Part shown: positions 12,983 through 56,739 of the stretch, one piece after another
Layout: every line of letters begins with the position of its first letter
Position numbering within the stretch: the stretch's first letter is position 1
Source of the DNA: a virus
Taxonomy: Duplodnaviria > Heunggongvirae > Uroviricota > Caudoviricetes
IMG/VR virus record: IMGVR_UViG_3300049215_000772
Span: 1-64,000 of that record
DNA: 64,000 nt
Strand: one strand, 5' to 3'
Translations under genes and position numbers: made by a program
Notes under the pieces: model-generated
What the model was told of the DNA's origin: nothing
Database searches by the model: none
What the model saw: the letters and a program-made list of their open reading frames with translations, nothing else

Positions 12983-14212
12983 TTACATCACTCCGACGAG
13001 TCCATCGAGATAGCACTGCGCCTCGTAGCGGGCCATCGCCTTGCCGATCTCCGGGCCAGCCAGGTGCATGAAGTCTTCCGACTTGGCGACCGGCTGGTAT
13101 GCCAAGAAGTAGTCCATGTCACCGATGCTTGCGCCGGCGATTTCGGCGAAGTCACGAATGTCCTGCACCAACTCGGCCAATGCCTGCTCTCGCTGTTCCC
13201 CTTCAAGCTGCTTGTAGAGATCACGCTGCCGAAGCAGGTGGGCTACCTTGTCAACATTGAACAGATACAGTTTTTGCAGGAATTCCACCCGATCCGACAC
13301 GTCGTTCGGGTACTTCAGCTTGTTCAGGTGCTTCCGAACACCTTCACGTCCCTTCAGGAGCCATGCCAGGACCGCTTTCAGGTTCCGGCACCGACCGATC
13401 TTCTCGATGTCGGCGACGACCCCCAGGACGGCAGGCATCAGGCCCAGCGCCTCGTAGCTCTGGACGTACTTGGCAGGGTTTCGAGCCTTCTGCAAGCCGA
13501 CCGAGAACTCGTTGGCGATGCGCTCCGGGGACACACCCTTCAAGTCCCTGAACTCCTCGATGGCGTTCAAGGTGTCGGGGTCAAGGCTGATGTCGCTGTC
13601 CTTGAAGCGGTGGTAGAACCGTACCAGCCGGGGGATGCGTAGCTTGTCCTCCCGAAACCGATCACGGGCCACGCCTACTGGACGAACGACCAGGTTCTTG
13701 AGATCATCAAGTCCCTGTCCGAGTCCCTGTTCGTTGAGGTTGTAGTCCCGAATCTCCCGCTCGTGCAGGTGGTAGAACAAGGCGTTGATGGTCAGGTCAC
13801 GCCGAGCGGCGTCCTTGGCCGGCGTCGAGAAGACAACTTCATCGGGCCGACGACCATCACCAACGTCGGGGTCGTACCACTCCTCACGGAACGTGGCGAT
13901 TTCGTACTCGACTTCATCCAGCACGGCGCTGACGACGCCGAAGCTGACGCCCTTGGGGTAAGCGCTGATCCCCAACTTCTTTGCCTGCTGGCTGTTGAGG
14001 ATGCGGAGAACCTTGTCGGGATCGGCTTCAGTTGCCAGGTCCACGTCCTTGGGGTCGAAGTCGCCCCCGTGGAAGTGGCTGATGCCGAAGTCACGAACGA
14101 AACCACCGACGCCGTAAAGGTCTGCGTCGTGGGCGTTGAACAGGTTGTCCAGGGCGTAAACGGCCCCAGGCAGCGGAATTTCAGCTTTCAGTCGGTCGAA
14201 ACGGTCGCTCAT
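12983..14212 (-). CDS. cca: tRNA nucleotidyltransferase (CCA-adding enzyme, Pol-beta-like class II)
   Basis: 'GGFVRD', 'DVDLAT', 'RRDLTINAL' head-domain motifs in the canonical order. Confidence 0.8.
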   Translation of the reverse strand: MSDRFDRLKAEIPLPGAVYALDNLFNAHDADLYGVGGFVRDFGISHFHGGDFDPKDVDLATEADPDKVLRILNSQQAKKLGISAYPKGVSFGVVSAVLDEVEYEIATFREEWYDPDVGDGRRPDEVVFSTPAKDAARRDLTINALFYHLHEREIRDYNLNEQGLGQGLDDLKNLVVRPVGVARDRFREDKLRIPRLVRFYHRFKDSDISLDPDTLNAIEEFRDLKGVSPERIANEFSVGLQKARNPAKYVQSYEALGLMPAVLGVVADIEKIGRCRNLKAVLAWLLKGREGVRKHLNKLKYPNDVSDRVEFLQKLYLFNVDKVAHLLRQRDLYKQLEGEQREQALAELVQDIRDFAEIAGASIGDMDYFLAYQPVAKSEDFMHLAGPEIGKAMARYEAQCYLDGLVGVM

Positions 14213-32779: not shown

Positions 32780-32793
32780 TCCCGTCTTAGGGT

Positions 32794-32841
32794 GGGGCGG
32801 GCGGCTTCCTTCAGTCCACGAGGCCGCACCGCCCCTTTTTT
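32794..32841 (+). terminator. rho-independent terminator after prkA
   Basis: 12-bp GC stem (one bulge) 'ggggcgggcggc...gccgcaccgcccc' followed by TTTTTT. Confidence 0.6.
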
Positions 32842-32855
32842 CAAGGTGGAGAGAC

Positions 32856-33071: not shown

Positions 33072-33091
33072 CAACTAACAGGTAAACAACA

Positions 33092-34564: not shown

Positions 34565-35289
34565 TATTTGAAAGTTCTACACGAGCGCAGTACAATATGG
34601 GTATGCCAAACCATATATGCCAACAATGCGGTGTAGAATTCTACAACAAGAATAGCGGTGCTAGGTACTGCTCGCAGCAATGTACCAAGAACAGCACCAA
34701 GAAAGGCACGAGCGGCAAATGCTACAACTGCGGTAAGGAAGTTTATATTCCGAACCATAAGAACATCCAGAAGACCTTCTGTAGTTGGGAATGCAACATG
34801 GAGGCCCAGCGCAAGAGACGCCCGACTAGGGTGTGTAAGCACTGCGGAAGGGAATTCAAGAAGAAGGCCAGGAGCAATGCGATGTTTTGTTCTCCAGCCT
34901 GCCGTTTGAGTTCAGAATACAACATGCAACAACTTGCCGCCATGAGGAAGAAACAGGCCGGCAAGAAGCCCACCAAATTGGAATTATTGGGATATAGCAT
35001 CCTCGATGAGATCGGCCTGGAGTATGAGAAACAGTACATATTCGACAGATTTGTGGCCGATGCCTATGTTAAAGAACTGAACCTGATCGTACAATTTGAT
35101 GGCGATTACTGGCACGGCAATACCAGTAAGTTTCCGACGCTCTCGGAGTTTCAGATGAAGCAAACAGAAAGAGATCGCCGAGCAGATGCAAAAGCCCGTG
35201 ATCTTGGGCATCGAGTCATCCGGTTGTGGGAATCGGATGTCTACAAGGATCAACAAGCAGTGAAGAACCGCATACTGTTGAAGGAGTGA
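34561..35289 (+). CDS. zinc-ribbon + Vsr-like endonuclease (putative Vsr-family homing/nicking endonuclease)
   Basis: Several CxxC pairs at the N-terminus; C-terminus 'LIVQFDGDYWHGN...ERDRRADAKARDLGHRVIRLWESDV' matches the Vsr 'F.DGCFWHG...ERD.RD...L...GW.V..VWE'; GTG at 34561 or ATG at 34597. Confidence 0.6.
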   Translation: MIFESSTRAQYNMGMPNHICQQCGVEFYNKNSGARYCSQQCTKNSTKKGTSGKCYNCGKEVYIPNHKNIQKTFCSWECNMEAQRKRRPTRVCKHCGREFKKKARSNAMFCSPACRLSSEYNMQQLAAMRKKQAGKKPTKLELLGYSILDEIGLEYEKQYIFDRFVADAYVKELNLIVQFDGDYWHGNTSKFPTLSEFQMKQTERDRRADAKARDLGHRVIRLWESDVYKDQQAVKNRILLKE

Positions 35290-35292
35290 AAG

Positions 35293-36513: not shown

Positions 36514-36749
36514 TGTTTTACTACTGTATGGCCTGCGGTGAGGAGTTGGAGTCACCAGGAATAGGGTATTACTATTCCCAAGAGTGTAAGAAGTGTAACA
36601 AGTTCAACGTCAGTGTATATTGGTATGGCTACGATGTAAACATTGACGACAAGTTCTTCCATTTTGATGAATCTGGCTATGGGAACAGGGAAAGCCAACA
36701 AGCCTTAGAGGAATACCTCAAGCAAAGGAGCGAGCAAAATGGGCAATAA
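36512..36749 (+). CDS. small zinc-ribbon protein coupled to yeaH
   Basis: TGATG overlap with the yeaH stop; 'CMACGEE...CKKCNK'. Confidence 0.45.
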
Positions 36750-38334
36750 GTTCATGCACGGATCGAGCATCTTGCTCGGCGACAATACAGTTCCCGGCGT
36801 GCAACTCCCAAAGGAGATGAAGGAAAACGTCCCCATCATCCTTCAGGCTTGTCGGGATTGGGGGTTGGATTTCTACCCCACAGTGGTCCAACTGCTGACC
36901 TACGACGAAATCTCCGAGATCGCTGCCTACGGCGGCTTCCCGGTCAGGTATCCTCATTGGCAGTTCGGTATGGAGTACGAAGAACTTCAGCGGGGCTATG
37001 AGTTTGGGATGCACAAGATTTACGAGATGGTCATCAACACCAATCCCTGCTACCAGTGGTTGCTGAGTTCCAACAGTCTGGAAGACAACCTGACCGTCGT
37101 GGCTCATGCTACAGGGCACAATGACTTCTTCAAGAACAACATCCATTTCAGCGCCACCGACACCAACATGCTGAACAAGATGGCGAACCACGGCACCCGT
37201 ATTCGCCGTTACATGACCAGGTGGGGCAAGGAGCGTGTTGTTGAGTTCATCGACCATGTTCTGCGGCTGGAGACGTTGATCGACGGGGCTGAGGCGTGGA
37301 CACAGAAAACGATCCGGGACAGGAACCTTTCGGATCAAAGGAAGTACCGCCATCCGAGAAGGTTGAAGGTGAGCAAGGAACGGCTCTACATGGAACCGTT
37401 CATCAACACACGGGACTTCCGCCAGGAAGAAAACAAGCGGATTTCCAAGCTGGACACGGCGGACGAAATTGGCCTGTTCACTGATCCGACCAAGGATATT
37501 CTTGGTTTCCTGCGGGACAATGCTCCTCTCAAACCGTGGCAGCAGGACATTGTTGCCATGTTGTATGAAGAAAGTTTGTACTTCTATCCGCAAAGACAAA
37601 CTAAGGTAATGAACGAAGGGTGGGCCTCGCTGACCGACCATATTATCATGGCCCGGCAGGGTTATATCGCCCTGGGTCAGAAACAGCATGATATGGGTAT
37701 TGTTGAGTATGCCGCTCACAAGATGGGAGTTCTTGGCGGCAAGTACAGCATGAACCCGTACAAGCTGGGCTTCTACTTGTTCCTGGACATTGAAGAAAGA
37801 TGGAACAAGGGCCAGTTCGGTACGGAGTGGGATGAGTGCGACGACATCAGGAAGAAGGAAAAGTGGGACACTGGCGCAATGCTCGGCAAGGAGAAGATTT
37901 TCGAGATCAGGAAGTATTATGACGACCTGACTTTCCTGAATGAGTTCTTCACCGAGGACTTCTGCCGGGCACAGGAATACTTCTACTGGAAGCACTATCC
38001 GAATGGTGAGTACCGATTGGAGCATCGTGACTTCAAGGAAATCAAGGCTGGGTTGATGCGCCGCCACCTGAACGGAGGGTTGCCTTCCATCAAGCTGACT
38101 GAGCCGAACTACCGTGGCAAGGGGTTCATGATGCTCCAGCATGATTGGGACGGGCGTGCGATTTACGATCCGTATGTTCGTGATGTTATGACTTCGTTGC
38201 GATTCTTGTGGGGCAACGACATTTTCTTGGCAACGAAGGACGATGATGGCCGAGAAGCCATTTATGGTTGCTATGGAACTGCCGAGGATGATGTTGAATT
38301 GGTTTCCCGCAAGGACCATATGAAGGATTGGTAA
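36739..38334 (+). CDS. spoVR: SpoVR/YcgB-family protein
   Basis: 'WGLDFYP...AAYGGFPVRYPHWQFGMEYE', 'HATGHNDFFKNN' and full-length colinearity with SpoVR. Confidence 0.85.
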   Translation: MGNKFMHGSSILLGDNTVPGVQLPKEMKENVPIILQACRDWGLDFYPTVVQLLTYDEISEIAAYGGFPVRYPHWQFGMEYEELQRGYEFGMHKIYEMVINTNPCYQWLLSSNSLEDNLTVVAHATGHNDFFKNNIHFSATDTNMLNKMANHGTRIRRYMTRWGKERVVEFIDHVLRLETLIDGAEAWTQKTIRDRNLSDQRKYRHPRRLKVSKERLYMEPFINTRDFRQEENKRISKLDTADEIGLFTDPTKDILGFLRDNAPLKPWQQDIVAMLYEESLYFYPQRQTKVMNEGWASLTDHIIMARQGYIALGQKQHDMGIVEYAAHKMGVLGGKYSMNPYKLGFYLFLDIEERWNKGQFGTEWDECDDIRKKEKWDTGAMLGKEKIFEIRKYYDDLTFLNEFFTEDFCRAQEYFYWKHYPNGEYRLEHRDFKEIKAGLMRRHLNGGLPSIKLTEPNYRGKGFMMLQHDWDGRAIYDPYVRDVMTSLRFLWGNDIFLATKDDDGREAIYGCYGTAEDDVELVSRKDHMKDW

Positions 38335-38343
38335 TGAGGGTCA

Positions 38344-38526
38344 ATGGAGAAGTTTGAGATTACGTTATTCACAGGCGAAGGTTTGGCCGAGTTCACTGAT
38401 CGGCTCGGCTTCATTCTGATGGAACTTGGCGTGAAGTTCAGGGTGAAAGAGTTTCACGATGACTTCATGGTATTCGAGTTCATTCAGGCCGAGCGGCTAG
38501 ATGAAGATGGCAAGAAAAAAAGTTGA
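38344..38526 (+). CDS. hypothetical small protein
   Basis: ORF only. Confidence 0.3.
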   Translation: MEKFEITLFTGEGLAEFTDRLGFILMELGVKFRVKEFHDDFMVFEFIQAERLDEDGKKKS

Positions 38527-39184
38527 TTTGGTTGAATTGCTGGGCCAGGTTCACAACTACGAAGTGAACCTGGCTACCAGGGAAATTTACCTTCACAGTC
38601 ATTACAACGCCAGTGGGCCAGACGAAGAAAGTGGGGTGGAGTTTCGCATGGCTACCACCTTCATCAAGAATCTTCACGTTCTTGATCTCGCTGACGATGC
38701 GCCTATTTTAGTTCACCTTCAATCGCCTGGAGGGGATTGGGGTCACGGGATGGCGATATTCGACGCCATCCGAGCAACGAATTCCCCCGTCACTATCCTC
38801 GCTCACGGCGAAGTTTCATCCATGAGCGGCATCATATTCCAAGCGGCTGTACACCGCATAATGATGCCGAGTTGCGAGATGATGATCCACAGGGGCTTTT
38901 TGTCGTTGGATGGTGTTTCTTCAACAGTACAAGCCAACGCTTTGTGGAACAAAAGAACTGATACAAAGATGTTGCAAATATATGCGTCTCGTGCCATAAT
39001 GGGCAAGTATTTTACCCAGGGAAACATGACGCATCAGCAGGTGTTGCGTTTCATCGACCGAAAGATTCAGAAGGTTGGAGATTGGAACCTGGACGCCGAG
39101 CAAGCCGTTTTCTACGGTTTGGCAGATGGCATATATGGCGAGCCTGGGTATGACACACTCAAAGAAATTCGGAGATTAGCATGA
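38501..39184 (+). CDS. clpP: ClpP-family serine peptidase
   Basis: 'LQSPGGDWGHGMAIFDAI', Ser in 'GEVSSMSG', His in 'MMIHRG'. Confidence 0.7.
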   Translation: MKMARKKVDLVELLGQVHNYEVNLATREIYLHSHYNASGPDEESGVEFRMATTFIKNLHVLDLADDAPILVHLQSPGGDWGHGMAIFDAIRATNSPVTILAHGEVSSMSGIIFQAAVHRIMMPSCEMMIHRGFLSLDGVSSTVQANALWNKRTDTKMLQIYASRAIMGKYFTQGNMTHQQVLRFIDRKIQKVGDWNLDAEQAVFYGLADGIYGEPGYDTLKEIRRLA

Positions 39185-41474: not shown

Positions 41475-42902
41475 ATGAAGAAATGTGAAATTTGCGGGTT
41501 TGAACACCTGCATCTCCATACCGATTTCAGCCTTCTCGATGGCTATGGGATGGTTGAGGAATATGCTCTCCGGGCACCCAAAATCAACCAGAAATTTCTG
41601 ACAGTTTCCGACCACGGTATGATGGGCGTGGTCCCCCGTCAGATCAAAGCATGTGAGAACATCTGCAAAGCCAACGGCAAAGATGCCCTCTCCCCCATTT
41701 TTGCCTGTGAACTATATGTCAACCGCCTCCAGCCTGAATGCAACAACCCGAACGATATGCAGAAGTTCATGAAGGGTCTGAATGAGGAAGACCTTCGTGA
41801 AGTGCGCCAATATGGGGCACACCTTCTTGCTATCGCCTACAACGAAACAGGTTACAAAAACCTGGTCCGACTTTCTTCCTGGGGCTGGACCAAGGGCTTC
41901 TATCGCCGGCCCAGGGTTAATTACGATCAACTCATCAAGCATCGTGAGGGCTTGTTTTTCACGTCCTGCTGCTACGCTTCTGAGGTCGGCAAAGCCTTCG
42001 ACCGTGGCCTCAAGATCAGCGAAGAAGCCGCCTACGAAGCTGGATACCAGATGATCCAGCGCTACCTGGATATGTTTGGTCGGGAGCATTACTTTCTGGA
42101 AATGATGCTCCTTGACTTCAAGAAACAGAAGCCCTATGACAAATTCATCGTGGCGGCTGCCGAGAAGTTTGGGTTGCGGCTCATCATCACCAATGATTGC
42201 CACTACTGCCAGCAGGAAGACAGCCACTACCAGCGGCTTATGTTGATGGTGCAGACGAACCGCACCCTCCAGGAAATCCAGAAGGCAATGGCTGAAGACT
42301 CCATGCAGGACTTCTTCGAGTTGCAGGACGCCAACTTGTGGATGAAGTCCGAGGAGGAAATCAACGAGAAGTGGTTGCGGGACTACAGCGATGTGATCCC
42401 CTACGAACTTTTCTGTGAGGCCAAGCGCAACACGGTCTGGATTTGCAACAAGGCCAAGGGCGTCAAGTTGGATCGCAGCCTCAAGTTGCCCGTGTTGGAT
42501 GGGGCCGATGAAAAACTCAAGGAAGAGATCATGAGGGGTTTCGCCAAGCGTGGACTGCCCAAAACCCGTGAATATCTGGATCGTATCAAGGAAGAATACA
42601 GCCTCATCTGGCGGAAGGGGTTTTCCTCCTACTTCCTGCTTCAGAAGATGATGACCGATGAGGCTCGGCGTGTCAGCCCGCAATTGTTGGGTTGGGGTGA
42701 CGGCAGCGAAGCCGTGGGTCCGGGCCGTGGTAGCGCTGTTGGTGCCCTCACTTGCTACTGTTTGGGAATTACCGACGTGGACCCCGTATATGAAGGGTTG
42801 TTGTTCAGCCGCTTCATGAGCGAGGCCCGTGGCGGTAGGCATATTGTGTTGGATTTCCGTAACATTGATCCCCTGCCGCCCGACGAGGCATTCGCAGCAT
42901 GA
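41475..42902 (+). CDS. dnaE: DNA polymerase III alpha (DnaE-type) N-terminal fragment: PHP domain through the start of the palm
   Basis: 'HLHLHTDFSLLDG' PHP motif; 'GPGRGSAVGALTCYCLGITDVDPV...LLFSRF' matches DnaE '[30 protein letters not shown]'; stops before the catalytic 'PDxDxD'. Confidence 0.8.
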   Translation: MKKCEICGFEHLHLHTDFSLLDGYGMVEEYALRAPKINQKFLTVSDHGMMGVVPRQIKACENICKANGKDALSPIFACELYVNRLQPECNNPNDMQKFMKGLNEEDLREVRQYGAHLLAIAYNETGYKNLVRLSSWGWTKGFYRRPRVNYDQLIKHREGLFFTSCCYASEVGKAFDRGLKISEEAAYEAGYQMIQRYLDMFGREHYFLEMMLLDFKKQKPYDKFIVAAAEKFGLRLIITNDCHYCQQEDSHYQRLMLMVQTNRTLQEIQKAMAEDSMQDFFELQDANLWMKSEEEINEKWLRDYSDVIPYELFCEAKRNTVWICNKAKGVKLDRSLKLPVLDGADEKLKEEIMRGFAKRGLPKTREYLDRIKEEYSLIWRKGFSSYFLLQKMMTDEARRVSPQLLGWGDGSEAVGPGRGSAVGALTCYCLGITDVDPVYEGLLFSRFMSEARGGRHIVLDFRNIDPLPPDEAFAA

Positions 42903-45087: not shown

Positions 45088-46305
45088 TTACATTGAGAGG
45101 TTGCCCCCGCCCATTGCTCCCATACCGCCCGCATCTTGTCCCATCGGGCTATCTTTGAGTGCTGCCATCAAGTGATGGTGAGCGTGCTTTTTCTTCTTCT
45201 TTCTGGTTGGCATGATCTTGCTGCCTGGTGCGAGATCGGCATCTTTGTCGCCGTGGTGTCCATGCGGTCCCATTGTTGGGTCGTGGTCATCTCCACCCAG
45301 GCCCATATCATCGCCGCCTAGTCCCATGTCATCGCCACCCATGCCGCCCATGCCCATATCATCGTCGCCGCCTAGTCCCATGTCATCGCCGCCCATTGGG
45401 TGTCCGTGCGGCCCATCCATGTCGTGATGGCCGTGGTGTCCGTGAGGAGGCCCGCCCAGGCCCATATCATCGCCGCCCATGCCCATGTCGTCATCGCCCA
45501 TACCCATGTCCATATCATCATCAGAGCCGTGCATGTCTTCCGGGTGGGGTGGTTTCGATGGATCGTCGTCATCGTCGTCGATGTCGTCTTTGTGTGCTGG
45601 TGGGCCAACCATCTCGTTCATGGCCCTGACGAGACGGCGGGCGTATTTTTCATCACGCTCCATGAAGTGAGCCATGACTTTGTAGGTTTCGTCGTGCTGA
45701 AGCATCTCGGCAACCATCTTGCCGAACGCCTTGTTTCGCTTCATTTCACGGACGAGGGTAATCATGACCGACTGGTTGGCGTTTGCCAAAGCGACAGCCT
45801 GGCGAACAACATCGTTGGCCGACTCCTGGCAGGCACACTCGTTGGTGATCTTGTCGATTCCCTTGGAGGTAGTCTTCTGGATCATCTTGGTGAATTCGGC
45901 CAGGGACATGCCCTTGGTGCGGTTCAGCCATTCCTGGGTTTTGGTTTTGTTCCAATCACTGGAAACAGTTTTGCCACCCGGAACACCAGCAGCTTCTTTG
46001 CCGCCCGTGATGAAGTTACCTTTTTCCTTGTCGCCCGGAGTGTATTTCAAATCTTTGTCACCCTTGTCGGCAAAACCACCATCTAGCTTGCCCTTGTTGG
46101 GGTCTTTGGCGTCTTTGCCGCCCTTGTAGGGTTTTGGTTGACCCTGGCCTTTGCCGCCAGCGTCTTTGTGTTTGTTTTCTTTCTTAGGCGCAGATTCCTT
46201 GGGACCGCTGTAGTCGGCCTTGGCTTCGATTTTGCCTTTGGTAGAAAACTTCGACTTGGTGTCGAGATATTCCTGAAATGTCTTGTGGGCCATGTGTTTC
46301 TCCAT
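45088..46305 (-). CDS. acidic repeat protein ('DDMG[LM]GG' x ~10, His-rich)
   Basis: 405-aa ORF; basic N-terminal third, central helical domain, C-terminal tandem Asp/Met/Gly repeats; the matching nucleotide tandem repeats span about 45283..45520. Confidence 0.5.
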   Translation of the reverse strand: MEKHMAHKTFQEYLDTKSKFSTKGKIEAKADYSGPKESAPKKENKHKDAGGKGQGQPKPYKGGKDAKDPNKGKLDGGFADKGDKDLKYTPGDKEKGNFITGGKEAAGVPGGKTVSSDWNKTKTQEWLNRTKGMSLAEFTKMIQKTTSKGIDKITNECACQESANDVVRQAVALANANQSVMITLVREMKRNKAFGKMVAEMLQHDETYKVMAHFMERDEKYARRLVRAMNEMVGPPAHKDDIDDDDDDPSKPPHPEDMHGSDDDMDMGMGDDDMGMGGDDMGLGGPPHGHHGHHDMDGPHGHPMGGDDMGLGGDDDMGMGGMGGDDMGLGGDDMGLGGDDHDPTMGPHGHHGDKDADLAPGSKIMPTRKKKKKHAHHHLMAALKDSPMGQDAGGMGAMGGGNLSM

Positions 46306-46515: not shown

Positions 46516-47043
46516 TCATAGCCCAAAAAAGGATGCAAACTCCTCGTCGGAACCTTTGAAGGCACCCCTCAGTGGATGGCTCGCATATTTGCTGCTTTGC
46601 GCAGGTGCAGTCCGTGGAGCGTTCAGGTGAGGGGTTGCTGGTTTCTGACAGGCATTGGGCAGGTTTTGCTGAAGCTGACGTATATATCTTTGGAATAGCC
46701 TATCCCGAACAGCGGCCCCTGTGTCTGTGCCCCCTGTGGCTGGTGTATAGGTGATTTTTGTTGGGTCTACCGGGCCGAACTTCCGACATACATCATTGGC
46801 GAACTGGTTCATGATGCTCATGATGTTGACAGATTTATCAATGGGTTGGTCTTTGTCGGAGTCATCGCCAAGGAAGTTGATGTGGAGTTCGTCGCCGTTC
46901 AAAGCGAACAAAGCTATGAAGGATCGGCTTCCGGTTGGGGTTGTCACGGTGTAGCGGGCTGTGCCGGGGTTGCCAGTTCTGGAGGTAATGCCTCCAGATA
47001 CTTGTTGGTTTTCCATCAAGTGCAGCCAGTTTTTGAACATCAC
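46516..47043 (-). CDS. hypothetical protein
   Basis: ORF only. Confidence 0.4.
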   Translation of the reverse strand: MMFKNWLHLMENQQVSGGITSRTGNPGTARYTVTTPTGSRSFIALFALNGDELHINFLGDDSDKDQPIDKSVNIMSIMNQFANDVCRKFGPVDPTKITYTPATGGTDTGAAVRDRLFQRYIRQLQQNLPNACQKPATPHLNAPRTAPAQSSKYASHPLRGAFKGSDEEFASFFGL

Positions 47044-47084
47044 GAGGTATATATTAAGGTGAAGAATTTCCCTTGAGGGGCGAT

Positions 47085-47366
47085 ATGGAATTCATGCGGT
47101 TTGCACAATTTCTGAAACAACGGGATGAGAAGATGGCTGAAAACGTCACTGCCAACAAAGAAGCGATGGCGTTTGACACCAAGATTCAGGCGTTCCGCAA
47201 CCGATTCCCGGATGGTGATGGCGAGCGGATCGTCAAGCTGGCCGGCTACCCGGACGTTCGTGCCTTCCTGCACGACCCGGACGAGGCGAAGTGGGCGAAA
47301 CTGAAAATCCCTGGGCAAGATAACTACGTCAAGAACCATCCTCACCACCGGAATTCGTTGATCTGA
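47085..47366 (+). CDS. hypothetical small protein
   Basis: ORF only. Confidence 0.35.
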   Translation: MEFMRFAQFLKQRDEKMAENVTANKEAMAFDTKIQAFRNRFPDGDGERIVKLAGYPDVRAFLHDPDEAKWAKLKIPGQDNYVKNHPHHRNSLI

Positions 47367-47559
47367 CTTGACAACCCCGAAAAATCGGGGTAGTATGAGA
47401 TCACCGGACCTGGGGAGAAAGGCACAAGCCGGTCTTACCCAGCGCAGGCCCGTCAAGTTGGGAATGGGCGCAAATAGAAGAGCTAGAATGGGTTCCGTCC
47501 AGGTTCCCCCTATAGCCGCCCAGCAAATAGCCCGCTTGATGAAAACCTGGGCAAACTTC

Positions 47560-47920
47560 GGGGGCGCAACGGCTTCTACGGAGTGTGATGTGACTGAAGT
47601 GGCACGCACTGGTTGGTCAGCAGGCCAGTATAAAAGCAGACCATCGCTTTAACCGGCGAAACTCAGTTCGCAATGGCGGCTTGACCGCCAGGGCTTGAAG
47701 GAAGCGACGTGATTTAGCGTCTTTCTAGCCCTCGCAAAATAATCACTGGCTTCACCCTTGCAGATACGGTGAAGTGAGAAACCGATTCTGCTGGTCCCAA
47801 CCGGCCTTTGTCTGTTGTCGGTAAGTTGGGGTGAGACGCCGAAAGGCAAAACAACAGAACAAGCGTGTAGATGCTCATTCACTAGCAGTTCGGACAGGGG
47901 TTCGACTCCCCTCGCCTCCA
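47560..47920 (+). ncRNA. ssrA: tmRNA (ssrA), one-piece, about 361 nt, CCA not encoded
   Basis: 5' 'GGGGGCGCAACGGCUUCUACGG' (compare E. coli 'GGGGCUGAUUCUGGAUUCGACGG'); 3' 'UUCGGACAGGGGUUCGACUCCCCUCGCCUCCA' (compare 'UUCGGACGCGGGUUCAACUCCCGCCAGCUCCA'). The 7-bp acceptor stem GGGGGCG/CGCCUCC keeps the G3:U70 alanine identity pair. Internal tag frame 47646..47684 'GCU UUA ACC GGC GAA ACU CAG UUC GCA AUG GCG GCU UGA' gives (AL)TGETQFAMAA*. Confidence 0.75.
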
Positions 47921-47935
47921 CTGGTGATTAGGCCA

Positions 47936-47966
47936 GAAGCCCGACAAGGGTAACATCTTGTCGGGC
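47936..47966 (+). terminator. terminator after the tmRNA
   Basis: 'gcccgacaagggtaacatcttgtcgggc' followed by 'tttgtcctttt'. Confidence 0.5.
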
Positions 47967-47989
47967 TTTGTCCTTTTAGGGGAAGCATC

Positions 47990-49206: not shown

Positions 49207-49574
49207 TCTTGGGTTGTGTGTCCTTTGCTGGTCCACATCTTGATGCCTTCCTTGCTCAATATCTCATCCCTCGACACTTCCCTTCTTCCGAAAGTCCAAT
49301 TGGGCTGAAGTCTTACTTCCTCGTTGCGAAACAGCCAGGATTCCCCTGTGGCGTCGATGAAGACTTGCCATATCAGGGAATGCTCGGTGCTGTAGTCGAT
49401 GATGATATGCGCCATGCCCCGCCCTTTGGGAGTTTCCAACGGTATTGGTGGGTTGAGTTGTACAATCACAACATATATCCTTTCGATATTCTGCTCTTTT
49501 ATCGTTCGATTCAAAGCCGTATAATCCATCGTACCTGGAGGATATACGATGACACGATCCGATGAGAATCGCAA
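49203..49574 (-). CDS. hypothetical protein
   Basis: ORF only. Confidence 0.35.
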   Translation of the reverse strand: MRFSSDRVIVYPPGTMDYTALNRTIKEQNIERIYVVIVQLNPPIPLETPKGRGMAHIIIDYSTEHSLIWQVFIDATGESWLFRNEEVRLQPNWTFGRREVSRDEILSKEGIKMWTSKGHTTQD

Positions 49575-50613
49575 GCTAAACGAGCTTCTTGAAAATCAGA
49601 ATACTGCTGCCCATCATAAATTTGCCAGAGTGAGTTGTAGTGGGGATTCCCCTGTTGCCGATGGAGTGCCTACAACATCGAGTGACGAGAAGGATTTGGC
49701 GGGACTTGTTCAGTGGACGACGGGGGATGGCAAGCGTTTCGTCCCAGCCAGTCACACTGCTGAGAAGTTGACGCCTGGCGTGTACGAGATTCAGCACTCG
49801 AACACCATTGGCATTTATTTCGAGAGAATCCCGGTCCTGACATTGGGCCTGTTGCGTTTTCCGCAAACCAACTCCGAACGGGTGTTGGAGGAAATCCAGA
49901 AGTTTTGGCAGAAGGCAGACATTTTCAAAGAATACAACCTGACCCACAAGCGGGGCATCATCATGTGGGGACCGCCCGGTAGCGGTAAATCCTGCACGAT
50001 CCAACTCATCATGAAAGATGTCGTGGACCGCAACGGTGTGGTCATCAAGTTCACCCACCCGCACTTGTTCAACGAGGGCATGAGGAAGTTCCGGGAGATT
50101 GAACCGGATACACCTGTGGTTGTTCTAATGGAGGATATTGACTCGATATTGGAGCAGTTCAACGAGTCTGAAGTCCTCAATATCCTCGACGGCATCAATC
50201 AAATCGAGAAGGCTGTCTTCTTGGCAACCACCAATTACCCGGAGCGGCTGGGTGCCAGGATCATCAATCGGCCTTCTCGTTTCGACAAGCGATTCTTCAT
50301 CGGACATCCCGACGAGGAAAGCCGCAAGTTGTACTTCCGGCATATCATTGGTGATGATAAGATCAAGCAACTCAGTATCGACCTGGACAGGTGGGTTGCT
50401 GATACCGACGAGTTCTCCATCGCTCACCTGAAGGAGTTGTTTACTGCCGTCGTCATCTTGGGTGACGATTATGACGAGGCCGTTGAAACTCTAAAAACGA
50501 TGAAGGAAGAATACATTACTTCCGACAACGATGAGCGCCGCAATCCAATGGGATTTGGCAATATGCCAAAGCGACTTACCGCCACGAGAAAGCAGAGGTC
50601 TAGCTATGAATGA
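49549..50613 (+). CDS. classic-clade AAA ATPase with a unique ~150-aa N-domain
   Basis: Walker A 'GPPGSGKS', Walker B 'VVLMEDIDS', sensor-1/SRH 'FLATTNYPERLGARIINRPSRFDKRFFIG'. Confidence 0.75.
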   Translation: MTRSDENRKLNELLENQNTAAHHKFARVSCSGDSPVADGVPTTSSDEKDLAGLVQWTTGDGKRFVPASHTAEKLTPGVYEIQHSNTIGIYFERIPVLTLGLLRFPQTNSERVLEEIQKFWQKADIFKEYNLTHKRGIIMWGPPGSGKSCTIQLIMKDVVDRNGVVIKFTHPHLFNEGMRKFREIEPDTPVVVLMEDIDSILEQFNESEVLNILDGINQIEKAVFLATTNYPERLGARIINRPSRFDKRFFIGHPDEESRKLYFRHIIGDDKIKQLSIDLDRWVADTDEFSIAHLKELFTAVVILGDDYDEAVETLKTMKEEYITSDNDERRNPMGFGNMPKRLTATRKQRSSYE

Positions 50614-51213: not shown

Positions 51214-52524
51214 ATGGTTACTAGGGAACTGTTTGAGTCCACTTGTCAGAAGAAGCTCGAAGATATGGGGGTCGCTGATGACCCCCGCTACAAGAAGCGA
51301 CTCGCCTGGGAACTTGGCGAGATCAATGCCAAGGGCAAGCACGATTACTTCTGGTCGATGCACGAGAAGAAGGTCCGCTATCCCCTCAATCAGAACAATT
51401 TGCTCATCTGCAAGTTGCTGGGAATTTGCAAAGACTACAACATCGAGAACGACCCAAACTGCGAGTACGGCAGCTACCCCGACATCGACATCGACTACCT
51501 CGACATCGTTCGGGACTACCTGAAAACTGATTGGGCACCCCGTATCTTCGGGGAAGAATATGTCTGCAACATCGGCAACTACACCACTTTCAAGATCAAA
51601 TCGGCCCTCATCGACATGGCTCGTGTCCACAGCGAGAGTCGTGAAGAAATCCAGGCCATCACCAAAAACCTTGACGACAAGGACGACGAGGGCAAGGCCA
51701 TCACTTGGGATGCAGCGATGAAGCTGTACCCGGACCTGAAGAAATACTGTGAGGAACACAAGGACGTTGCTGAAGCCGCCAAACGACTTCTCAACCGCAA
51801 CCGTGGGATGGGCGTCCACGCCGGGGGACTCATCATCTCCAGCATCCCCCTTTCCGACCTGGTGCCGCTCGTCAAGCGTAAGGACAATCCACAGGCCAGT
51901 GCGTGGGTGGAAGGTTTGCACGGCCAGGACTTGGGGCCGGTCGGCCTGGTGAAGTTCGACTTGCTGGTAATCAACAACCTGCTCCAGATTGCTAAGTGCT
52001 GCAAACTTGTCAAGGAGCGGCATGGGCTGGCTGGTATTTGCGCCCTGCCCGGCAAAAGCGATTGGACCGATGTGAATGCCTGGCGCAACGATCCCAAAGC
52101 CCTGGCAATGGCTGACAAGGGCGACCTGAAGGGTATCTTCCAGTTCGACAAAGATACTGTTCGCACAATGGCCCGCAGGGGTGGCGTGACCAGGTTTGAA
52201 GACCTGATTGCCTACACCAGCCTTAACCGGCCAGGGCCGATGCAGTGTGTGAAGGAAAGCACGAATGTTTCGACATCCGTGGGGCAGAGTCCAATCGAGA
52301 AACTTGAGCCTGGGCATGATGAAATTGCTTATCTCGGCGGCGATGGTATGTTGAAACACACCAAGCGATACTTCGTCACCAAAACGAAGAAAAAGAGTCT
52401 GTTGAAAATCACGACTCGTTCCGGCAAGGTGCTGTACGTCTCTCCCGACCACCGCATTCTCACCGAAAGCGGGTATATCCGAGCCGATAATCTCGAAAAA
52501 AGCCAGAAAGTTGCTTCCATTTAA
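51214..52524 (+). CDS. dnaE: DnaE middle fragment (palm with catalytic 'PDIDIDY') fused to a split-intein N-fragment
   Basis: 'YPDIDIDYLD', 'GVHAGGLII', 'GLVKFDLLVI', 'GIFQFDK', 'LNRPGPMQ' match E. coli DnaE palm motifs; then 'CVKEST...GKVLYVSPDHRILTESGYIRADNL' shows Hint block A (Cys1, Thr6) and block B (TxxH as 'SPDH'). Confidence 0.8.
   Translation: MVTRELFESTCQKKLEDMGVADDPRYKKRLAWELGEINAKGKHDYFWSMHEKKVRYPLNQNNLLICKLLGICKDYNIENDPNCEYGSYPDIDIDYLDIVRDYLKTDWAPRIFGEEYVCNIGNYTTFKIKSALIDMARVHSESREEIQAITKNLDDKDDEGKAITWDAAMKLYPDLKKYCEEHKDVAEAAKRLLNRNRGMGVHAGGLIISSIPLSDLVPLVKRKDNPQASAWVEGLHGQDLGPVGLVKFDLLVINNLLQIAKCCKLVKERHGLAGICALPGKSDWTDVNAWRNDPKALAMADKGDLKGIFQFDKDTVRTMARRGGVTRFEDLIAYTSLNRPGPMQCVKESTNVSTSVGQSPIEKLEPGHDEIAYLGGDGMLKHTKRYFVTKTKKKSLLKITTRSGKVLYVSPDHRILTESGYIRADNLEKSQKVASI
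52246..52521 (+). mobile_element. split intein N-fragment (IntN, about 92 aa) at the DnaE 'RPGPMQ|C' junction
   Basis: Begins with Cys directly after the conserved 'RPGPMQ'; the Hint N-terminal blocks align with cyanobacterial DnaE IntN 'CLSYETEILT...ATKDHKFMT'. Confidence 0.65.
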
Positions 52525-52565: not shown

Positions 52566-53567
52566 ATGCTGTGTAAGATATGTGGTCGTGATATTTCTGG
52601 CAAGTTCTATTTGCATCTGAACGGCAGCCACAAGATGCGGAAGGATGATTATTTACAGATGTTTCCTGAGCAGGCTGCTGAATATGATGGTCAGGTTCCC
52701 AAGCAGGCTTGGAACAAAGGTTTGACAAAACATACTCATCCTTCTGTGGCTAGATGCGCAGAGCAGGCGGCGGTATACTCTCGACGTGAAGATGTTCGTA
52801 TTTTCCGCTCTGAGCATATGAAACAGCGATATGAGGGTGGTGATATTGTGGACTCGGCAACACGAGCAAGGATTGTCGAAGCAGGCACGCATGGTTGGGT
52901 AAAAAAAATTCAATCTGCTTCTGAAGAAGAACGACGAAAACTTCTTTTTGCTTTCACACGGGCCGGGAATGCCCGTCAGGAGGAGTTGAGAGCGACCCGC
53001 ACGCCAGAAGACTTTCAGAAGTTATACCCTTGGGCAAAAGGTATTGCTACTTGGGGAAGTTGTTATGGATGTGGGAAGCAGATGATTATTTGGCTCGGCG
53101 GCAAACCACGACCCAAACGAAGATTTTGTTCTTCGGAGTGTTGTGTCGAGTATAGAAAGAAGCACCCATATTTCACTTTTGAGACAGGCATGAGATATTA
53201 TTCGACCAAGATGGAAACGGAATTTTATCTGCGATCCAATTTAGAGGTATGGTTCGCAGAGACATTGGATGCTTGTGAGAAGGTGAGGGGATGGATTGCA
53301 AGTCCATGCTCTATTGAGTATGGCCTCAATGGTAAAACTCGCACTTATCATCCTGATTTTTTGGTGGATGGCTATTGGTTGATGGAGTTGAAGTCTGGCT
53401 ATGTATACAGCATCAGGAAAGAAGAAACCGAAGCGAAGTTGAAAGCGGCTACAAAGTACGCTTCCAACAACGGCCTAGAGTTTGTATATTGGCAATTCAA
53501 TGAGTCCAATATGACGGCTGCAAAGTTTGCAGCCGATCTACGGGTGAAAGCATTTATGGGTGAATGA
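52566..53567 (+). CDS. zinc-finger + PD-(D/E)xK nuclease (free-standing homing endonuclease candidate between the intein halves)
   Basis: 'CKICGRDIS...H', 'CYGCGK...CSSEC'; C-terminal 'YHPDFLVDGYWLMELKSG' (D...E.K); same family as 20352..21050. Confidence 0.5.
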   Translation: MLCKICGRDISGKFYLHLNGSHKMRKDDYLQMFPEQAAEYDGQVPKQAWNKGLTKHTHPSVARCAEQAAVYSRREDVRIFRSEHMKQRYEGGDIVDSATRARIVEAGTHGWVKKIQSASEEERRKLLFAFTRAGNARQEELRATRTPEDFQKLYPWAKGIATWGSCYGCGKQMIIWLGGKPRPKRRFCSSECCVEYRKKHPYFTFETGMRYYSTKMETEFYLRSNLEVWFAETLDACEKVRGWIASPCSIEYGLNGKTRTYHPDFLVDGYWLMELKSGYVYSIRKEETEAKLKAATKYASNNGLEFVYWQFNESNMTAAKFAADLRVKAFMGE

Positions 53568-54097
53568 TGGATGCGGACATTGTGGTTATGTCGGATTGGC
53601 TGCTTTCTTTCCCTGATTTTGAGCGTAGGTTTGTGTCTACAGTAAGACATGCTGTGTCCTATGCTCTCTATCCAATCGGCGAGGAGTTACAGGATATTGG
53701 AAAGGCCGAGAAGACCATTATCGGAATTAAGTGGGAGCAATTCTTTCGACGAGAATTCGACATTCCTCCCGGTGAAAATCTGGATTGTAGCCTTTTGATT
53801 CCTTGGAGGTCTAGGGGGATTGAATTCGATTGCAAGTTGACAGTTGGCAATCAGTGGATGATCCCACCTGAATTGATACGGATTGAAGGATTGTGCCTGG
53901 TTTGTCAATACAGTGAGGCGCAGCACATCCGGGCAGGCGTACTCAGGGTGAAGGAAGAATATCTGAATATGGCTGGAAGCAACCGAGATCGAAAAAGGAT
54001 TCTCAACCAACATGGTAGGGAAGCCATTGATTGGATTTTGGAAGAGTCAAATTCTCCGCACATGATCCGGCCACTGCAAGCTATTATTGGAGGTTGA
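53564..54097 (+). CDS. hypothetical protein (possible nuclease partner of the adjacent methyltransferase)
   Basis: ATGA-coupled to the upstream gene and overlapping the MTase start; no clear motif. Confidence 0.35.
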   Translation: MMDADIVVMSDWLLSFPDFERRFVSTVRHAVSYALYPIGEELQDIGKAEKTIIGIKWEQFFRREFDIPPGENLDCSLLIPWRSRGIEFDCKLTVGNQWMIPPELIRIEGLCLVCQYSEAQHIRAGVLRVKEEYLNMAGSNRDRKRILNQHGREAIDWILEESNSPHMIRPLQAIIGG

Positions 54098-54872
54098 AGT
54101 GTTCTACTATTTTGGACGAAAGAGCCGTTTGGCTGACCTTTACCCCGCTCCTCGCCATGAACTGGTGATTGAGCCTTTTGCTGGGTCAATGGCATATACG
54201 TTGTATCACCAACCAACTAGGGCTATTGGCATTGAGTTGGATGATACTGTGGTTGAAGTTTGGAGCAAAATCTGTGGTTTGACGGCTCAGGAGTTGTTGG
54301 ATTATCCCGAACCGAAACGTGGAGATCGAACAGAAGATCGCTGGTGTATGATGGCGGGCGGCAGTCACGGAACGGCTAAGGCTAAGTCTTATCTGTGGAC
54401 CGAGAGAATGGAGCGTGATCTTCGCAAGCAAAAGCGAATGGCTGCCCGGTATGTTGATTATGCAAAGCAGCATATCGAATACAAATCGGGAAAATACCAG
54501 GATGCTCCAGATGAGGAGGCGACCTGGTTTATTGATCCGCCCTATCAGAACATCAAGCGGGGGTATCGCAGGGACGTTGATTACAAGGAACTTGCGGATT
54601 GGTGTAAGAAGCGACGAGGGCTGGTGATCGTCTGTGAACAGAGCGGGGCGGATTGGCTGCCTTTTAAGCCTTTGGAGAATATCAAGGGAACCAACAACAA
54701 GCGCACTTCGGAAGTTGTCTGGCTTGCTCTCAATGGTAAGGAAATAGTAAATGTCCGTCCTCATGTGAAGTTGCCCTGGTCAATTTACGCTCGTTTTAAG
54801 AAGGATTGCCGTCAAAATCGCAAGAAACAGTCGGATGTTTTGGCGAAGTTGATTGAACAACATCTTGGTTGA
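54087..54872 (+). CDS. dam: DNA N6-adenine methyltransferase (Dam-like, alpha group)
   Basis: Motif I 'EPFAGSMAY' (FxGxG) and motif IV 'DPPY' in alpha-class order. Confidence 0.65.
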   Translation: MEVEVFYYFGRKSRLADLYPAPRHELVIEPFAGSMAYTLYHQPTRAIGIELDDTVVEVWSKICGLTAQELLDYPEPKRGDRTEDRWCMMAGGSHGTAKAKSYLWTERMERDLRKQKRMAARYVDYAKQHIEYKSGKYQDAPDEEATWFIDPPYQNIKRGYRRDVDYKELADWCKKRRGLVIVCEQSGADWLPFKPLENIKGTNNKRTSEVVWLALNGKEIVNVRPHVKLPWSIYARFKKDCRQNRKKQSDVLAKLIEQHLG

Positions 54873-54879
54873 GGTTTCC

Positions 54880-55003
54880 ATGACGATTGCCTGGGATGAA
54901 ATTGTCTCTATTGAGCAAGTGGAGGATGGACAGTGCTATGACATCACTCTTCTCGAAGATGATGTTTACTTGGATGAGCCGAATTTCATTGCTGATGGGA
55001 TCG
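54880..55003 (+). mobile_element. split intein C-fragment (IntC, about 41 aa)
   Basis: Blocks F/G 'CYDITL...[12 protein letters not shown]' (compare Npu IntC 'VYDIGVERDHNFALKNGFIASN|C'). Confidence 0.65.
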
Positions 55004-56739
55004 TTGTCCATAATTGTGGTATGGACAAGCGGTATATCGAGCGCAAGCGTGGCCGGGAAAGTTTCGAGTTGCATCCGATCCTGAAACCTATCTTGCAGAA
55101 GACCTACGGCGTTATTGTGTACCAGGAGCAGGTAATGGCCGTCCTGAACGCTGTTGGGGAGATTTCCTGGCAGAACTGTTGGGATGTCTGCAAGGCCATG
55201 TCGAAGAAGAAGATCACTGGTTTCGAGAAATACAAGGAAATGTTCATCACGAATGGACAGAAGAACCTTGGTGTTTCCGACAAGGAGATCAATGACCTGT
55301 GGAACCAGTTGGAAGCCTTCTCTGAGTACGGGTTCAATTCCAGCCACGCCACGGCGTACACCTACATTTCTGGCTGGCTGTTGTGGCTGAAGGCTCATTA
55401 CCCGCATGAGTTCTACACTGCCATTTTGTCATGCGAGACGCTGGCGGAAAAAATGAAGGAGTACAAGATCGAGGCGTTCGTTCATGGCGTCAACATGCAC
55501 CAGTTGGACATCAACAAGTCCAAACTGACTTTCGATCTTGTGGGCGACACGATTTATTTCGGTCTTTCCAACGTCAAGGGCATTGGGGAGGAGCCGGCCA
55601 AGCGTATTTTGGCTGGGCAGCCTTACAAGGACATCGAGGACTTCCTGCGGCGGTTTGGGACGGATGCCAACGTGTTGAAGCCGTTGATTGGCTTGCGCTG
55701 TTTCCGTGAATCTGACCCGGTGACTTTGTGGAAGTTTGCTGAGTTCTACAAAGACAAGCACAAGAAGTACGAGGACAAGAAGAAGCGTTTTACTGCTAGT
55801 GTGGCCCGTTACCAGGAGCAGTTTGAGGAACTGACGGGCATGAAGGTGAAGTTGTCGGAGTTGGAGATGCCCAACTCCGGGAAGAATCCATTCGACAATG
55901 ACGAGTGGCGGTCCAAATTCGACATCAACGAAGAAATCGAAGTGGACAAGGAAATCGAGTGTGAGCCGCACGAGGAGGGTGCGGAGGCTCGCTGGGAGAT
56001 GGTGCCGGTGTTGATTGAGGGTACGGAGGACGAGTACATTGACAAGGAAGTTCAGCGGTACTACAAGATGGGGAAGGTGAAGAAGAAGTACAACAAATGG
56101 AAGAACATCGTGACGCTGTGGAATCGTTACCAGCGGGCGATTCAGAAGCAAAGGGAAGCGCCGGGTTTGCAATTGCCCAAGTTGGCGGAATTCAACGCCG
56201 CCGAGTGGGAAATTGACGATGATTTGGTGAAGGAATTGCGGCATCCTGTGAAGTGCGAAACTAAGTATTATGGTTTCGCCTGGGTTCACGATCTGGAGAA
56301 AAGCCCCGATTACAAGGGGAATATGACTTTCGAGCAATTCCGCAGCAACCCTGATCTCAAAACATCGCCCGTGGAGATCAAGGTGTTGAAAGTTAGCAAG
56401 CGGGACGGCAAGAAGGTCCAGTTCTATCAGATTGAGTGTGAGGATGCGACCAATGAGTTTGCCAAGTTCAACGTGTGGATGGACGACTGGCAGCGGTGGG
56501 GACCGGAATTGAAGAAGGGTAACTTACTTAGGGTTAGGTTGATGCCGCCTTCTGGTGGGTATCCAACCTACACCTTCGAGAGTCCTCCCAGGCATCAGCG
56601 TTGGAAACTTCCGAAGAACAAGGAGGATGATTTCCGGCTTGTTGTTATGCGACCCGGAAAAGAACAAGTGGATGACGTACTCACCAATGAGGAGGCTCTG
56701 GAACAGTTCTCTGAATGTGTTTACGGAGACGAAGAATGA
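54880..56739 (+). CDS. dnaE: split-intein C-fragment fused to the DnaE C-terminal fragment (fingers onward)
   Basis: IntC '[45 protein letters not shown]' ends in HN followed by the +1 Cys; the extein '[17 protein letters not shown]...[13 protein letters not shown]...[26 protein letters not shown]' matches DnaE 'SGMVDNFIDRKHGREEISY...YQEQVMQIA...[26 protein letters not shown]'. Confidence 0.8.
   Translation: [619 protein letters not shown]

Follow-up and report, generated by a model that had tools for sequence, protein, structure and literature searches.

A tmRNA gene in a conserved replication-gene neighbourhood of a huge-phage lineage

We analyzed a 64,000-nucleotide stretch of DNA from a Caudoviricetes virus (IMG/VR record IMGVR_UViG_3300049215_000772, positions 1 to 64,000; hereafter the window) and found that the region at 47560..47920 is very probably a genuine, full-length, one-piece transfer-messenger RNA (tmRNA, ssrA) gene of a huge phage, which has its own transcription unit and works with host factors. 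An earlier note on this DNA, made from the letters without database searches, had read the region as a tmRNA gene, and this reading is borne out by ARAGORN, by Rfam model RF00023 and by covariation among relatives. RNA identity, architecture, conservation under structural selection and conserved genomic position are directly supported.

Identity and structure of the tmRNA gene

ARAGORN called a tmRNA at 47560..47921(+) with the tag GETQFAMAA*, the sole RNA gene that it called in the window; the coding part was placed at nucleotides 96-125 of the tmRNA, i.e., 47655..47684. In the Rfam cmscan search, RF00023 (tmRNA) was the single match above the gathering threshold. It covered 47560..47923(+) and model positions 1-374 of 374, untruncated, with a score of 103.5 bits against a cut-off of 47 (E = 2.3e-39). 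These were the two tools proposed in the earlier note for checking its reading, and both call a full-length tmRNA beginning at 47560. The sequence and structural features of a one-piece RF00023 member were found, namely a score above threshold, the acceptor stem and T-arm, the long helix P2, the tag frame and the four pseudoknots PK1-PK4 (Table 1).

Table 1. Features of the tmRNA gene and its surroundings in the window
Feature	Position	Strand	Details
Conserved gene, 405 aa as open reading frame (ORF); 401 aa in public call	45088..46305	-	Divergent from tmRNA
Probable shadow ORF	47040..47609	-	Antisense to 97-aa ORF; overlaps first 50 nt of tmRNA
Small conserved ORF, 97 aa (93 aa in public call)	47073..47366	+	Ends just before promoter
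Sigma-70-like promoter	47368..47396	+	TTGACA-17 nt-TAGTAT; motif scan
Artefactual ORF, 94 codons	47368..47652	+	Starts at TTG of -35 box
Putative 5' leader, about 163 nt	47397..47559	+	Presumably removed at maturation
Mature tmRNA body, 361 nt	47560..47920	+	ARAGORN, RF00023 and sequence; ends at discriminator A47920
Acceptor stem	47560-47566 / 47913-47919	+	GGGGGCG / CGCCTCC; G47562:U47917 = G3:U70
P2 long helix	47579..47607 (5' strand)	+	Pairs with 47863-47892; three helices (2-4)
PK1	47608..47643	+	Stem 1 47608-47612/47625-47629; stem 2 47614-47621/47636-47643
Artefactual ORF, 90 codons	47649..47921	-	Antisense to tmRNA
Tag frame	47655..47684	+	GGC GAA ACT CAG TTC GCA ATG GCG GCT TGA; (Ala)-GETQFAMAA-stop
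Helix 5 hairpin	47675..47689	+	GGCGG-CTTGA-CCGCC, TGA stop in loop; sequence and Rfam alignment
PK2	47691..47746	+	Hairpin 47691-47731; loop GTGAT 47709-47713 pairs with ATCAC 47742-47746
PK3	47750..47791	+	CTTCAC 47750-47755/GTGAAG 47769-47774; GCAGA 47760-47764/TCTGC 47787-47791
PK4	47796..47858	+	Hairpin CCCAACCGGC...GTCGGTAAGTTGGG; loop TCTGTTG 47811-47817 pairs with CAACAGA 47852-47858
T-arm	47896..47912	+	AGGGG-TTCGACT-CCCCT; 100% paired; compensatory change in 3/5 pairs
Intrinsic-terminator-like hairpin	47936..47969	+	14 pairs, then T-run; scan
AAA ATPase, 354 aa, classic AAA clade	49549..50613	+	Downstream neighbour of tmRNA

The hallmarks that the earlier note had picked out are present in the sequence: the acceptor stem with its G3:U70 pair, the 5' element GGCTTCTACGG (47571-47581), and TTCGGAC (47889-47895) leading into the T-arm. 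Discriminator A47920 is followed by CTG and not by CCA, so the CCA must be added to the tmRNA post-transcriptionally. The lack of an encoded CCA had also been pointed out before, and it extends to all 16 tmRNAs that we analyzed from the phage clade described below. For the tag, ...TGETQFAMAA had been proposed. GETQFAMAA followed by TGA stands, but the leading T (codon ACC) lies outside the tag, upstream of the resume codon GGC (47655), which is preceded by U47650 at -5 and A47651 at -4. Overall, the gene is like bacterial one-piece tmRNAs of RF00023 in its G3:U70 pair, P2, PK1 before the tag, U-A at -5/-4, PK2-PK4 and stop codon in helix 5, and the CCA is unencoded as in most bacterial genes with tags of this type.

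Conservation of this architecture was assessed in an MAFFT alignment of the 16 clade tmRNAs (57% mean column identity). RNAalifold recovered the acceptor stem, P2, the T-arm and several pseudoknot stems, with compensatory change in 46 of 60 pairs. The second stems of PK1 and PK2 were then added and PK4 was extended by hand, which gave 73 pairs in 12 helices. Standard pairs filled 91.6% of cells, compared to 37-44% when the 3' partners were slid by 1-3 columns; the structure was drawn partly from the same alignment, which favours it over these slid controls. That derivation does not account for the 57 of 73 pairs that changed on both sides, and none of 500 shuffles reached any of the observed measures.

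The acceptor stem is 100% paired in the 16 sequences, with positions 5 and 6 changing on both sides, and G3:U70 is G:U in every one of them. P2 (helices 2-4) is 84-100% paired, with compensatory change in 16/20 pairs. The two stems of PK1 are 98.8% and 92.2% paired (compensatory change in 4/5 and 7/8 pairs, respectively), and PK2 (helices 7-9) is 89-92% paired (14/16 pairs). In PK3, the second stem covaries (5/5 pairs) and the first was read in the window sequence only, since the relatives are out of register in the MAFFT alignment. The loop helix of PK4 is 80% paired (6/7 pairs), and its hairpin was taken from the sequence and the Rfam alignment; an 11-nt insertion in PK4 is unique to the window tmRNA. 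Helix 5, PK3 stem 1 and the PK4 hairpin, whose register in MAFFT differs between relatives, were left out of the counts, yet helix 5 and the uncounted PK3 and PK4 stems are visible in the window sequence and the Rfam alignment. Thus, the covariation check suggested in the earlier note came out in favor of both stems of PK1 and PK2 and of one stem each of PK3 and PK4. Because P2 and pseudoknot stems covary, the pairing of acceptor stem and T-arm does extend into the tmRNA pseudoknot architecture.

In 16/16 sequences, the resume codon has an invariant G at +1 and is preceded by an invariant A at -4; resume codons of the relatives (GGC, GCN and GAC) share the alignment column of the window GGC, at which ARAGORN also starts the tag. 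The A at -4 agrees with the U85/A86 requirement of E. coli tmRNA. Tag ends are conserved as well, as every readable tag of the clade ends with (L/M)AA and a stop (other examples include GKSDLAMAA, DETVLSLAA, AENDLRLAA and ANDYVALAA, and there are more). Both the tmRNA structure and the tag end are under purifying selection.

Several clade tmRNAs, including intron forms, L156, L157, L159 and others, were missed by ARAGORN and recovered with Rfam and an nhmmer profile (names of this type denote IMG/VR loci). The tmRNA of L156 (1160-1516(-); also L145; IMG/VR 3300045125_000119) scored 86 bits with Rfam and had no ARAGORN call. A 2-nt insertion in its tag region puts the GGC resume codon out of frame with ...AMAA-TGA, which may be due to decay, to a sequencing error or to a resume point that has shifted. 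In L160 (3256-3850(-)) and L162 (3339-3887(-)), on IMG/VR contigs 3300020197_002141 and 3300021963_010054, the T-loop of the tmRNA is split by a group I intron (GGGGTTCG ^ intron ^ ACTCCCC; RF00028, 89.9 and 60.8 bits). An intron form of the tmRNA gene, with a group I intron in the T-psi-C loop, has been described from bacteria, Bacteroidia among them (PMC11915505). The genes of L160 and L162 are split in the same way; the window gene is uninterrupted.

Tag peptide, transcription unit and overlapping reading frames

We scanned one genome per species for the pattern G-E-x-x-F-A-M-A-A-stop and obtained at least 120 loci. Among the matches listed, these were overwhelmingly from Bacteroidota (Chitinophagales, Saprospiraceae, Sphingobacteriales and Flavobacteriales), with a few GEEQFAMAA loci from Verrucomicrobiota, and 84 of the 120 listed loci have an ARAGORN tmRNA at that place. 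The exact peptide GETQFAMAA occurs in at least six genomes, including a Sphingobacteriales and a Bacteroidetes metagenome-assembled genome. By sequence, the tag peptide of the phage looks host-matched. Unlike the Bacteroidota GExxFAMAA tmRNAs, the window gene is phage-encoded, has a highly diverged body and has no adjacent smpB. When it was compared with bacterial tmRNAs of the same tag by blastn, the T-arm (34 nt) and the tag alone aligned, and the longest exact match was 23 nt, implying that the gene is old in the phage lineage. A tag identical to that of Bacteroidota on a diverged RNA body is a clue for host prediction and suggests selection on the tag peptide itself.

A sigma-70-like promoter motif lies upstream of the gene. 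A close match to it (TTGACAACC...TAGTATG) recurs ahead of the tmRNA in L118 and L156, and L143 and L148 have motifs of the TTGAC type there. The distance from promoter to mature 5' end is 163 nt in the window vs about 35 nt in L118, the closest relative, i.e., about 130 nt extra. The putative leader folds slightly better than shuffled sequences (z = -2.19, a weak signal) and had no Rfam match. In addition, a perfect 5-bp inverted repeat (CCCCG 47375-47379/CGGGG 47386-47390) is located in the promoter spacer, right after the stop of a 97-aa ORF. A terminator hairpin had been claimed to follow the gene, and the scan located one there; comparable hairpin and T-run sites occur 3' of the tmRNA in at least 10 of 16 relatives.

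Two predicted ORFs covering the tmRNA, one on each strand, had been dismissed as artefacts, and several lines of evidence agree with this. Neither matched a Pfam or PHROG family. Substitutions relative to L118 (75% identical) are spread over codon positions 1/2/3 as 7/6/8 in the 94-codon ORF and 24/19/22 in the 90-codon ORF, and frame-breaking indels of 1 and 11 nt separate the two genomes in these ORFs. The antisense ORF shrinks to 49 codons in L118 and is not kept in relatives, and public gene calls on the source scaffold leave 47367-47989 empty. A third ORF, which overlaps the 5' end of the tmRNA on the minus strand, is probably a shadow of the 97-aa ORF: it is absent from the public gene calls, and it is less conserved (41% identity, E = 1e-11) than the 97-aa ORF (49%, E = 1e-24), homologs of which (44-49% identical) were found upstream of the tmRNA in L118, L119 and L121. 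For annotation, this means dropping two ORFs, or three with the shadow ORF, and adding an ssrA gene.

Source phage, conserved neighbourhood and claimed partners

A protein near the tmRNA in the window is 100% identical to one on ENA ERZ12294693 scaffold_68_c1, which is 673,178 bp long. This assembly is from a Sphagnum peat-moss metagenome set (PMC9584203). Phage genes in the window include those for a major-head-protein-like protein, a UvsX-like recombinase and a gp32-type single-stranded DNA-binding protein (SSB). The window also holds a PrkA-DUF444-SpoVR block, ThyX, a DEAD helicase, leucyl-tRNA synthetase (LeuRS) and a DnaE-type polymerase.

Relatives were found through proteins; nucleotide searches of the phage collection, by blastn for the tmRNA region and by megablast for the surrounding 25 kb, gave nothing useful. 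The closest deposited genome is LR756511.1 ("uncultured phage"; 595,163 bp, complete), with a 59% identical SpoVR, and IMG/VR contributed 32 loci whose SpoVR is 53-85% identical; the largest of their contigs has 381 kb. The relatives are deposited as phage or as uncultivated viral genomes. In LR756511, the tmRNA is located just downstream of SpoVR and carries the tag ANPEFAMAA (Rfam, 122 bits); it is a syntenic homolog with 56% identity, and the 405-aa gene and the AAA ATPase lie on either side of it there too.

Gene order is kept in the IMG/VR relatives: PrkA, DUF444, SpoVR, (ClpP-like), DnaE N-fragment, (LeuRS), the 405-aa gene on the opposite strand, tmRNA, AAA ATPase, a 206-aa gene and DnaE C-fragment. 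With ARAGORN, Rfam and the nhmmer profile together, a tmRNA was located no more than 4 kb from the homolog of the 405-aa gene in 13 of the 19 loci that have one. A tmRNA lies no more than 10 kb from SpoVR in 12 of the 32 SpoVR loci, of which many stop too soon. L131 and L134 carry an inversion that includes both the tmRNA and the 405-aa gene.

The 405-aa protein had no Pfam, PHROG or NCBIfam match and no Foldseek match in PDB, and about 70 metagenomic homologs were found. Its AlphaFold model has a pLDDT of 57 with a confident helical core at approximately residues 118-229, a Lys-rich N-terminal part and a long, Asp-rich disordered tail. It does not look like SmpB.

The earlier note had linked the tmRNA to an AAA ATPase, a ClpP and a CCA enzyme of the phage. 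This linkage is mostly unsupported. The gene for the AAA ATPase does have a conserved place beside the tmRNA, which it adjoins in L001, L131, L134, L135, L143 and L118 and, 60 nt downstream, in LR756511, but the protein is not of the ClpX/ClpA kind. It has Walker A, Walker B and the arginine motifs of the second region of homology, and PF00004 was its only Pfam match. The nearest solved structures are AFG2, CDC48, VAT and YjoB, and the nearest NCBIfam models (CDC48, PAN, CdvC and FtsH) are all far below their cut-offs. Domain search and alignment revealed no ClpX zinc finger, AAA_2 domain, IGF-type loop or canonical aromatic pore loop. In addition, DNA polymerase III alpha, whole or as its C-terminal fragment, is always encoded next to this gene too, and synteny is therefore no sign of a specific tie to the tmRNA.

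The link to ClpP is not supported. The ClpP-like protein (38501..39184) lies 8.4 kb from the tmRNA and scores 64.3 bits against the curated NCBIfam ClpP cut-off of 228, 39.6 against 308.6 for TIGR00493, and 58.1 bits with a model of ClpP-related head-maturation proteases (cut-off 120). It meets the Pfam CLP_protease model, a superfamily-level domain (78.7 bits); its best match to a solved ClpP is 50 bits, and the ClpP-type Ser, His and C-terminal motifs are kept. The protein is always found behind SpoVR in the order PrkA-DUF444-SpoVR and is not tied to the tmRNA; the complete LR756511 genome, which keeps the tmRNA, has no homolog of it.

The CCA-type enzyme (12983..14212) is 33 kb away from the tmRNA. 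It is a class II nucleotidyltransferase that could be CCA-adding, A-adding or poly(A)-specific, with PF01743 at 73.6 bits, CCA-adding enzymes as best PDB matches (E = 8e-22), a PHROG annotation of tRNA nucleotidyltransferase and an NCBIfam NF009814 score of 111 bits vs a cut-off of 290. A 32%-identical homolog is present in LR756511, also far from the tmRNA. Of the 63 tRNAs in that genome, about 4 have an encoded CCA and about 59 do not, and 68 of 77 bacterial tmRNAs of the same tag type (among the matches listed) also have none. Because phage tRNAs and bacterial tmRNAs alike mostly lack CCA, its addition is a general need that hosts also meet. The claimed special link to the tmRNA is not supported; the enzyme is plausibly used on the tmRNA, as part of general tRNA maturation.

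Given that SmpB is the partner of tmRNA, we searched for it with tblastn and phmmer, using E. coli SmpB (a sequence that scores 194 bits on PF01668) and the proteins of LR756502 and Lak-B5 as queries. No SmpB was found in the 64-kb window, in the fetched loci of relatives or in the complete LR756511 genome; the search does find SmpB in Lak phages and in LR756501-04. Host SmpB is therefore the most likely partner, and the clade probably depends on it.

Other features of this neighbourhood were also observed. The DnaE-type DNA polymerase III alpha is in pieces (41475-42902, 51214-52524, 52566-54872 and 54853-56739). Relative to the intact 1179-aa homolog of LR756511, the first piece covers residues 4-433, the second 436-707 (after 87 extra N-terminal residues) and the third 693-1176. 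In the first break lies an 8.3-kb block that carries the tmRNA together with LeuRS, the 405-aa gene and the AAA ATPase; a split intein was considered at this junction but is not supported, as no intein signature is present there. The second break is an intein: weak Hint/Intein matches end piece 2, piece 3 opens with an intein C-terminal part that ends in ...VVHN|C, and the two halves are about 2.3 kb apart with a TnsA-like endonuclease ORF between them. Most clade members have the same DnaE N/C split. PrkA (an AAA-type Ser kinase), DUF444 (YeaH-like) and SpoVR are encoded together in a block that these phages conserve (window 30668-39184), with a divergent ClpP-fold peptidase directly after SpoVR in most relatives and, in the window, an HATPase_c_3 protein (33092-34564) between PrkA and DUF444. 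The phage LeuRS (43156-45051(+), 631 aa) scores 636.6 bits against the bacterial LeuRS equivalog cut-off of 548.4 and has no homolog in LR756511. It aligns in two stretches that skip approximately model positions 190-410; together with its length of only 631 aa, this suggests that the editing (CP1) domain is missing.

Pattern scans of IMG/VR yielded other tmRNAs. With the 5'-end pattern, only unrelated phage tmRNAs were found, permuted ones included. The tag pattern hit mostly small contigs with alphaproteobacterial-looking permuted tmRNAs (ANNNFAMAA) and none of the clade. L007 (IMG/VR 3300033405_000002, 332 kb) and L017 (_000001, 463 kb) are unrelated and have circularly permuted, two-piece tmRNA genes with the tags ANAPKAMAAHA and ATAPKALAMAAAA. 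Two CUA-anticodon (amber suppressor) tRNAs are located near the tmRNA in L007, and LR756511 has one CUA-anticodon tRNA.

Proposed function, alternatives and significance

Following established tmRNA biology, the precursor would be trimmed by RNase P at its 5' end and back to the discriminator A47920 at its 3' end, and CCA would be added by the host enzyme or by the phage class-II nucleotidyltransferase. Host alanyl-tRNA synthetase (AlaRS) would charge the tmRNA via G3:U70. The charged tmRNA would join stalled ribosomes with EF-Tu and SmpB, most likely that of the host; translation would resume at GGC, adding (Ala)GETQFAMAA, and the ribosome would terminate at TGA and then be released. Given the Bacteroidota-type tag, tagged products would go to tag-recognising proteases of the host. 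The likely benefit to the phage would be extra ribosome-rescue capacity during infection, beside its own tRNAs, LeuRS and CCA enzyme, at a time when the phage would be altering translation with those tRNAs and LeuRS.

Several points weigh against this reading. The benefit to the phage is conjecture, and expression, processing, charging and tagging are carried over from known tmRNA biology. The promoter-like site is no commoner than chance (1 found, 0.9 expected in a 1.5-kb stretch) and gains some weight solely through its recurrence in relatives. Bacteroidota as host is tentative: it follows from the tag type alone, and the sigma-70-like promoters upstream of clade tmRNAs differ from the classic promoter type of Bacteroidota. 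SmpB is encoded by other huge phages (Lak, LR756501-04). Finally, 64 kb of a 673-kb scaffold were read, and a phage SmpB or a ClpX-type partner could be encoded elsewhere on it.

Different roles for the tmRNA, or none in the phage, were also considered. The idea that tmRNA, ClpP-like peptidase, AAA unfoldase and CCA enzyme form a phage-run module for tagging and degradation, independent of the host, draws on the AAA ATPase being a tmRNA neighbour even in distant relatives, on the ClpP-type Ser and His motifs and C-terminal ClpP motif of the peptidase, and on the presence of a CCA-type nucleotidyltransferase in the window. It is very unlikely, however, since the ClpP-like protein (64 vs 228 bits) is equally close to head-maturation proteases, follows PrkA-DUF444-SpoVR and is missing in LR756511, which keeps both tmRNA and AAA ATPase. 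Moreover, the ATPase resembles CDC48, AFG2, PAN and FtsH, is without zinc finger, IGF loop and canonical pore loop and is also a polymerase neighbour, and CCA addition is needed by about 59 of the 63 LR756511 tRNAs and by host-type tmRNAs alike. Another possibility is that the tmRNA is the core of a conserved module with the 405-aa protein, a basic/acidic and largely disordered product whose gene stays divergently paired with the tmRNA even where the two are inverted, and with the AAA ATPase, and that this module replaces SmpB or handles stalled ribosomes or tagged products in a way specific to the phage; we give it only a very slim chance. If true, such a three-gene module might counter host defences in which cleavage of mRNA or tRNA stalls ribosomes.

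The phage tmRNA might instead act mainly as a competitor or decoy that titrates host SmpB or displaces host tmRNA, or as a sensor of the translation state. With no phage SmpB found, the phage RNA must compete for that of the host, an inhibitory molecule consisting of the tRNA-like domain only has been proposed for mycobacteriophage DS6A (PMC4131195, PMC11915505), and sensing has been mentioned for huge phages (PMC7162821). Yet the tag frame, resume context, stop, (L/M)AA and all four pseudoknot regions are kept across a divergent clade, which would be unexpected if SmpB binding alone mattered, making this role very unlikely. There is next to no chance that the gene is a bacterial ssrA whose contig was mis-binned or is chimeric, a recent passenger or an attP-type 3' end of a host tmRNA. 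Although tmRNA genes are common integration sites (PMC11915505) and many small IMG/VR contigs with tmRNAs resemble prophage ends, this gene is full length with its own terminator, is found at the same position between phage replication genes in many huge-phage contigs, and shares the window with genes for phage head, UvsX and SSB proteins. Because the T-arm and tag alone align to bacterial tmRNAs, recent capture from a host and an attP role were rejected. A full-length phage tmRNA that works with host factors therefore accounts best for these observations.

Huge-phage tmRNAs were reported in 2020, together with SmpB (Al-Shayeb et al., PMC7162821). Unlike in huge phages generally, no SmpB was detected in LR756511, the complete representative of the present clade. 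Cultivated phages with tmRNA include mycobacteriophages Bxz1, Cali, Catera and others, and Bacillus phage G (PMC4131195, PMC12484599). As in these, a full-length ssrA is located in a large phage genome with many tRNAs, but lineages and hosts are unrelated and the tags differ (phage G, AKLNITNNELQVA), and the window tmRNA had no nucleotide match in the phage collection. Thus, no new principle is involved, as phage tmRNAs, including those of huge phages, have already been described. The additions are modest and consist of clade-wide synteny, the apparent lack of a phage SmpB, a host-type tag on a diverged body, and uncharacterised conserved neighbours.

In this study, we describe a huge-phage lineage that keeps a structurally constrained tmRNA within a conserved neighbourhood of replication genes, apparently without an SmpB of its own. 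This lineage lends itself well to the question of how SmpB, AlaRS and proteases of the host are recruited by a phage RNA.

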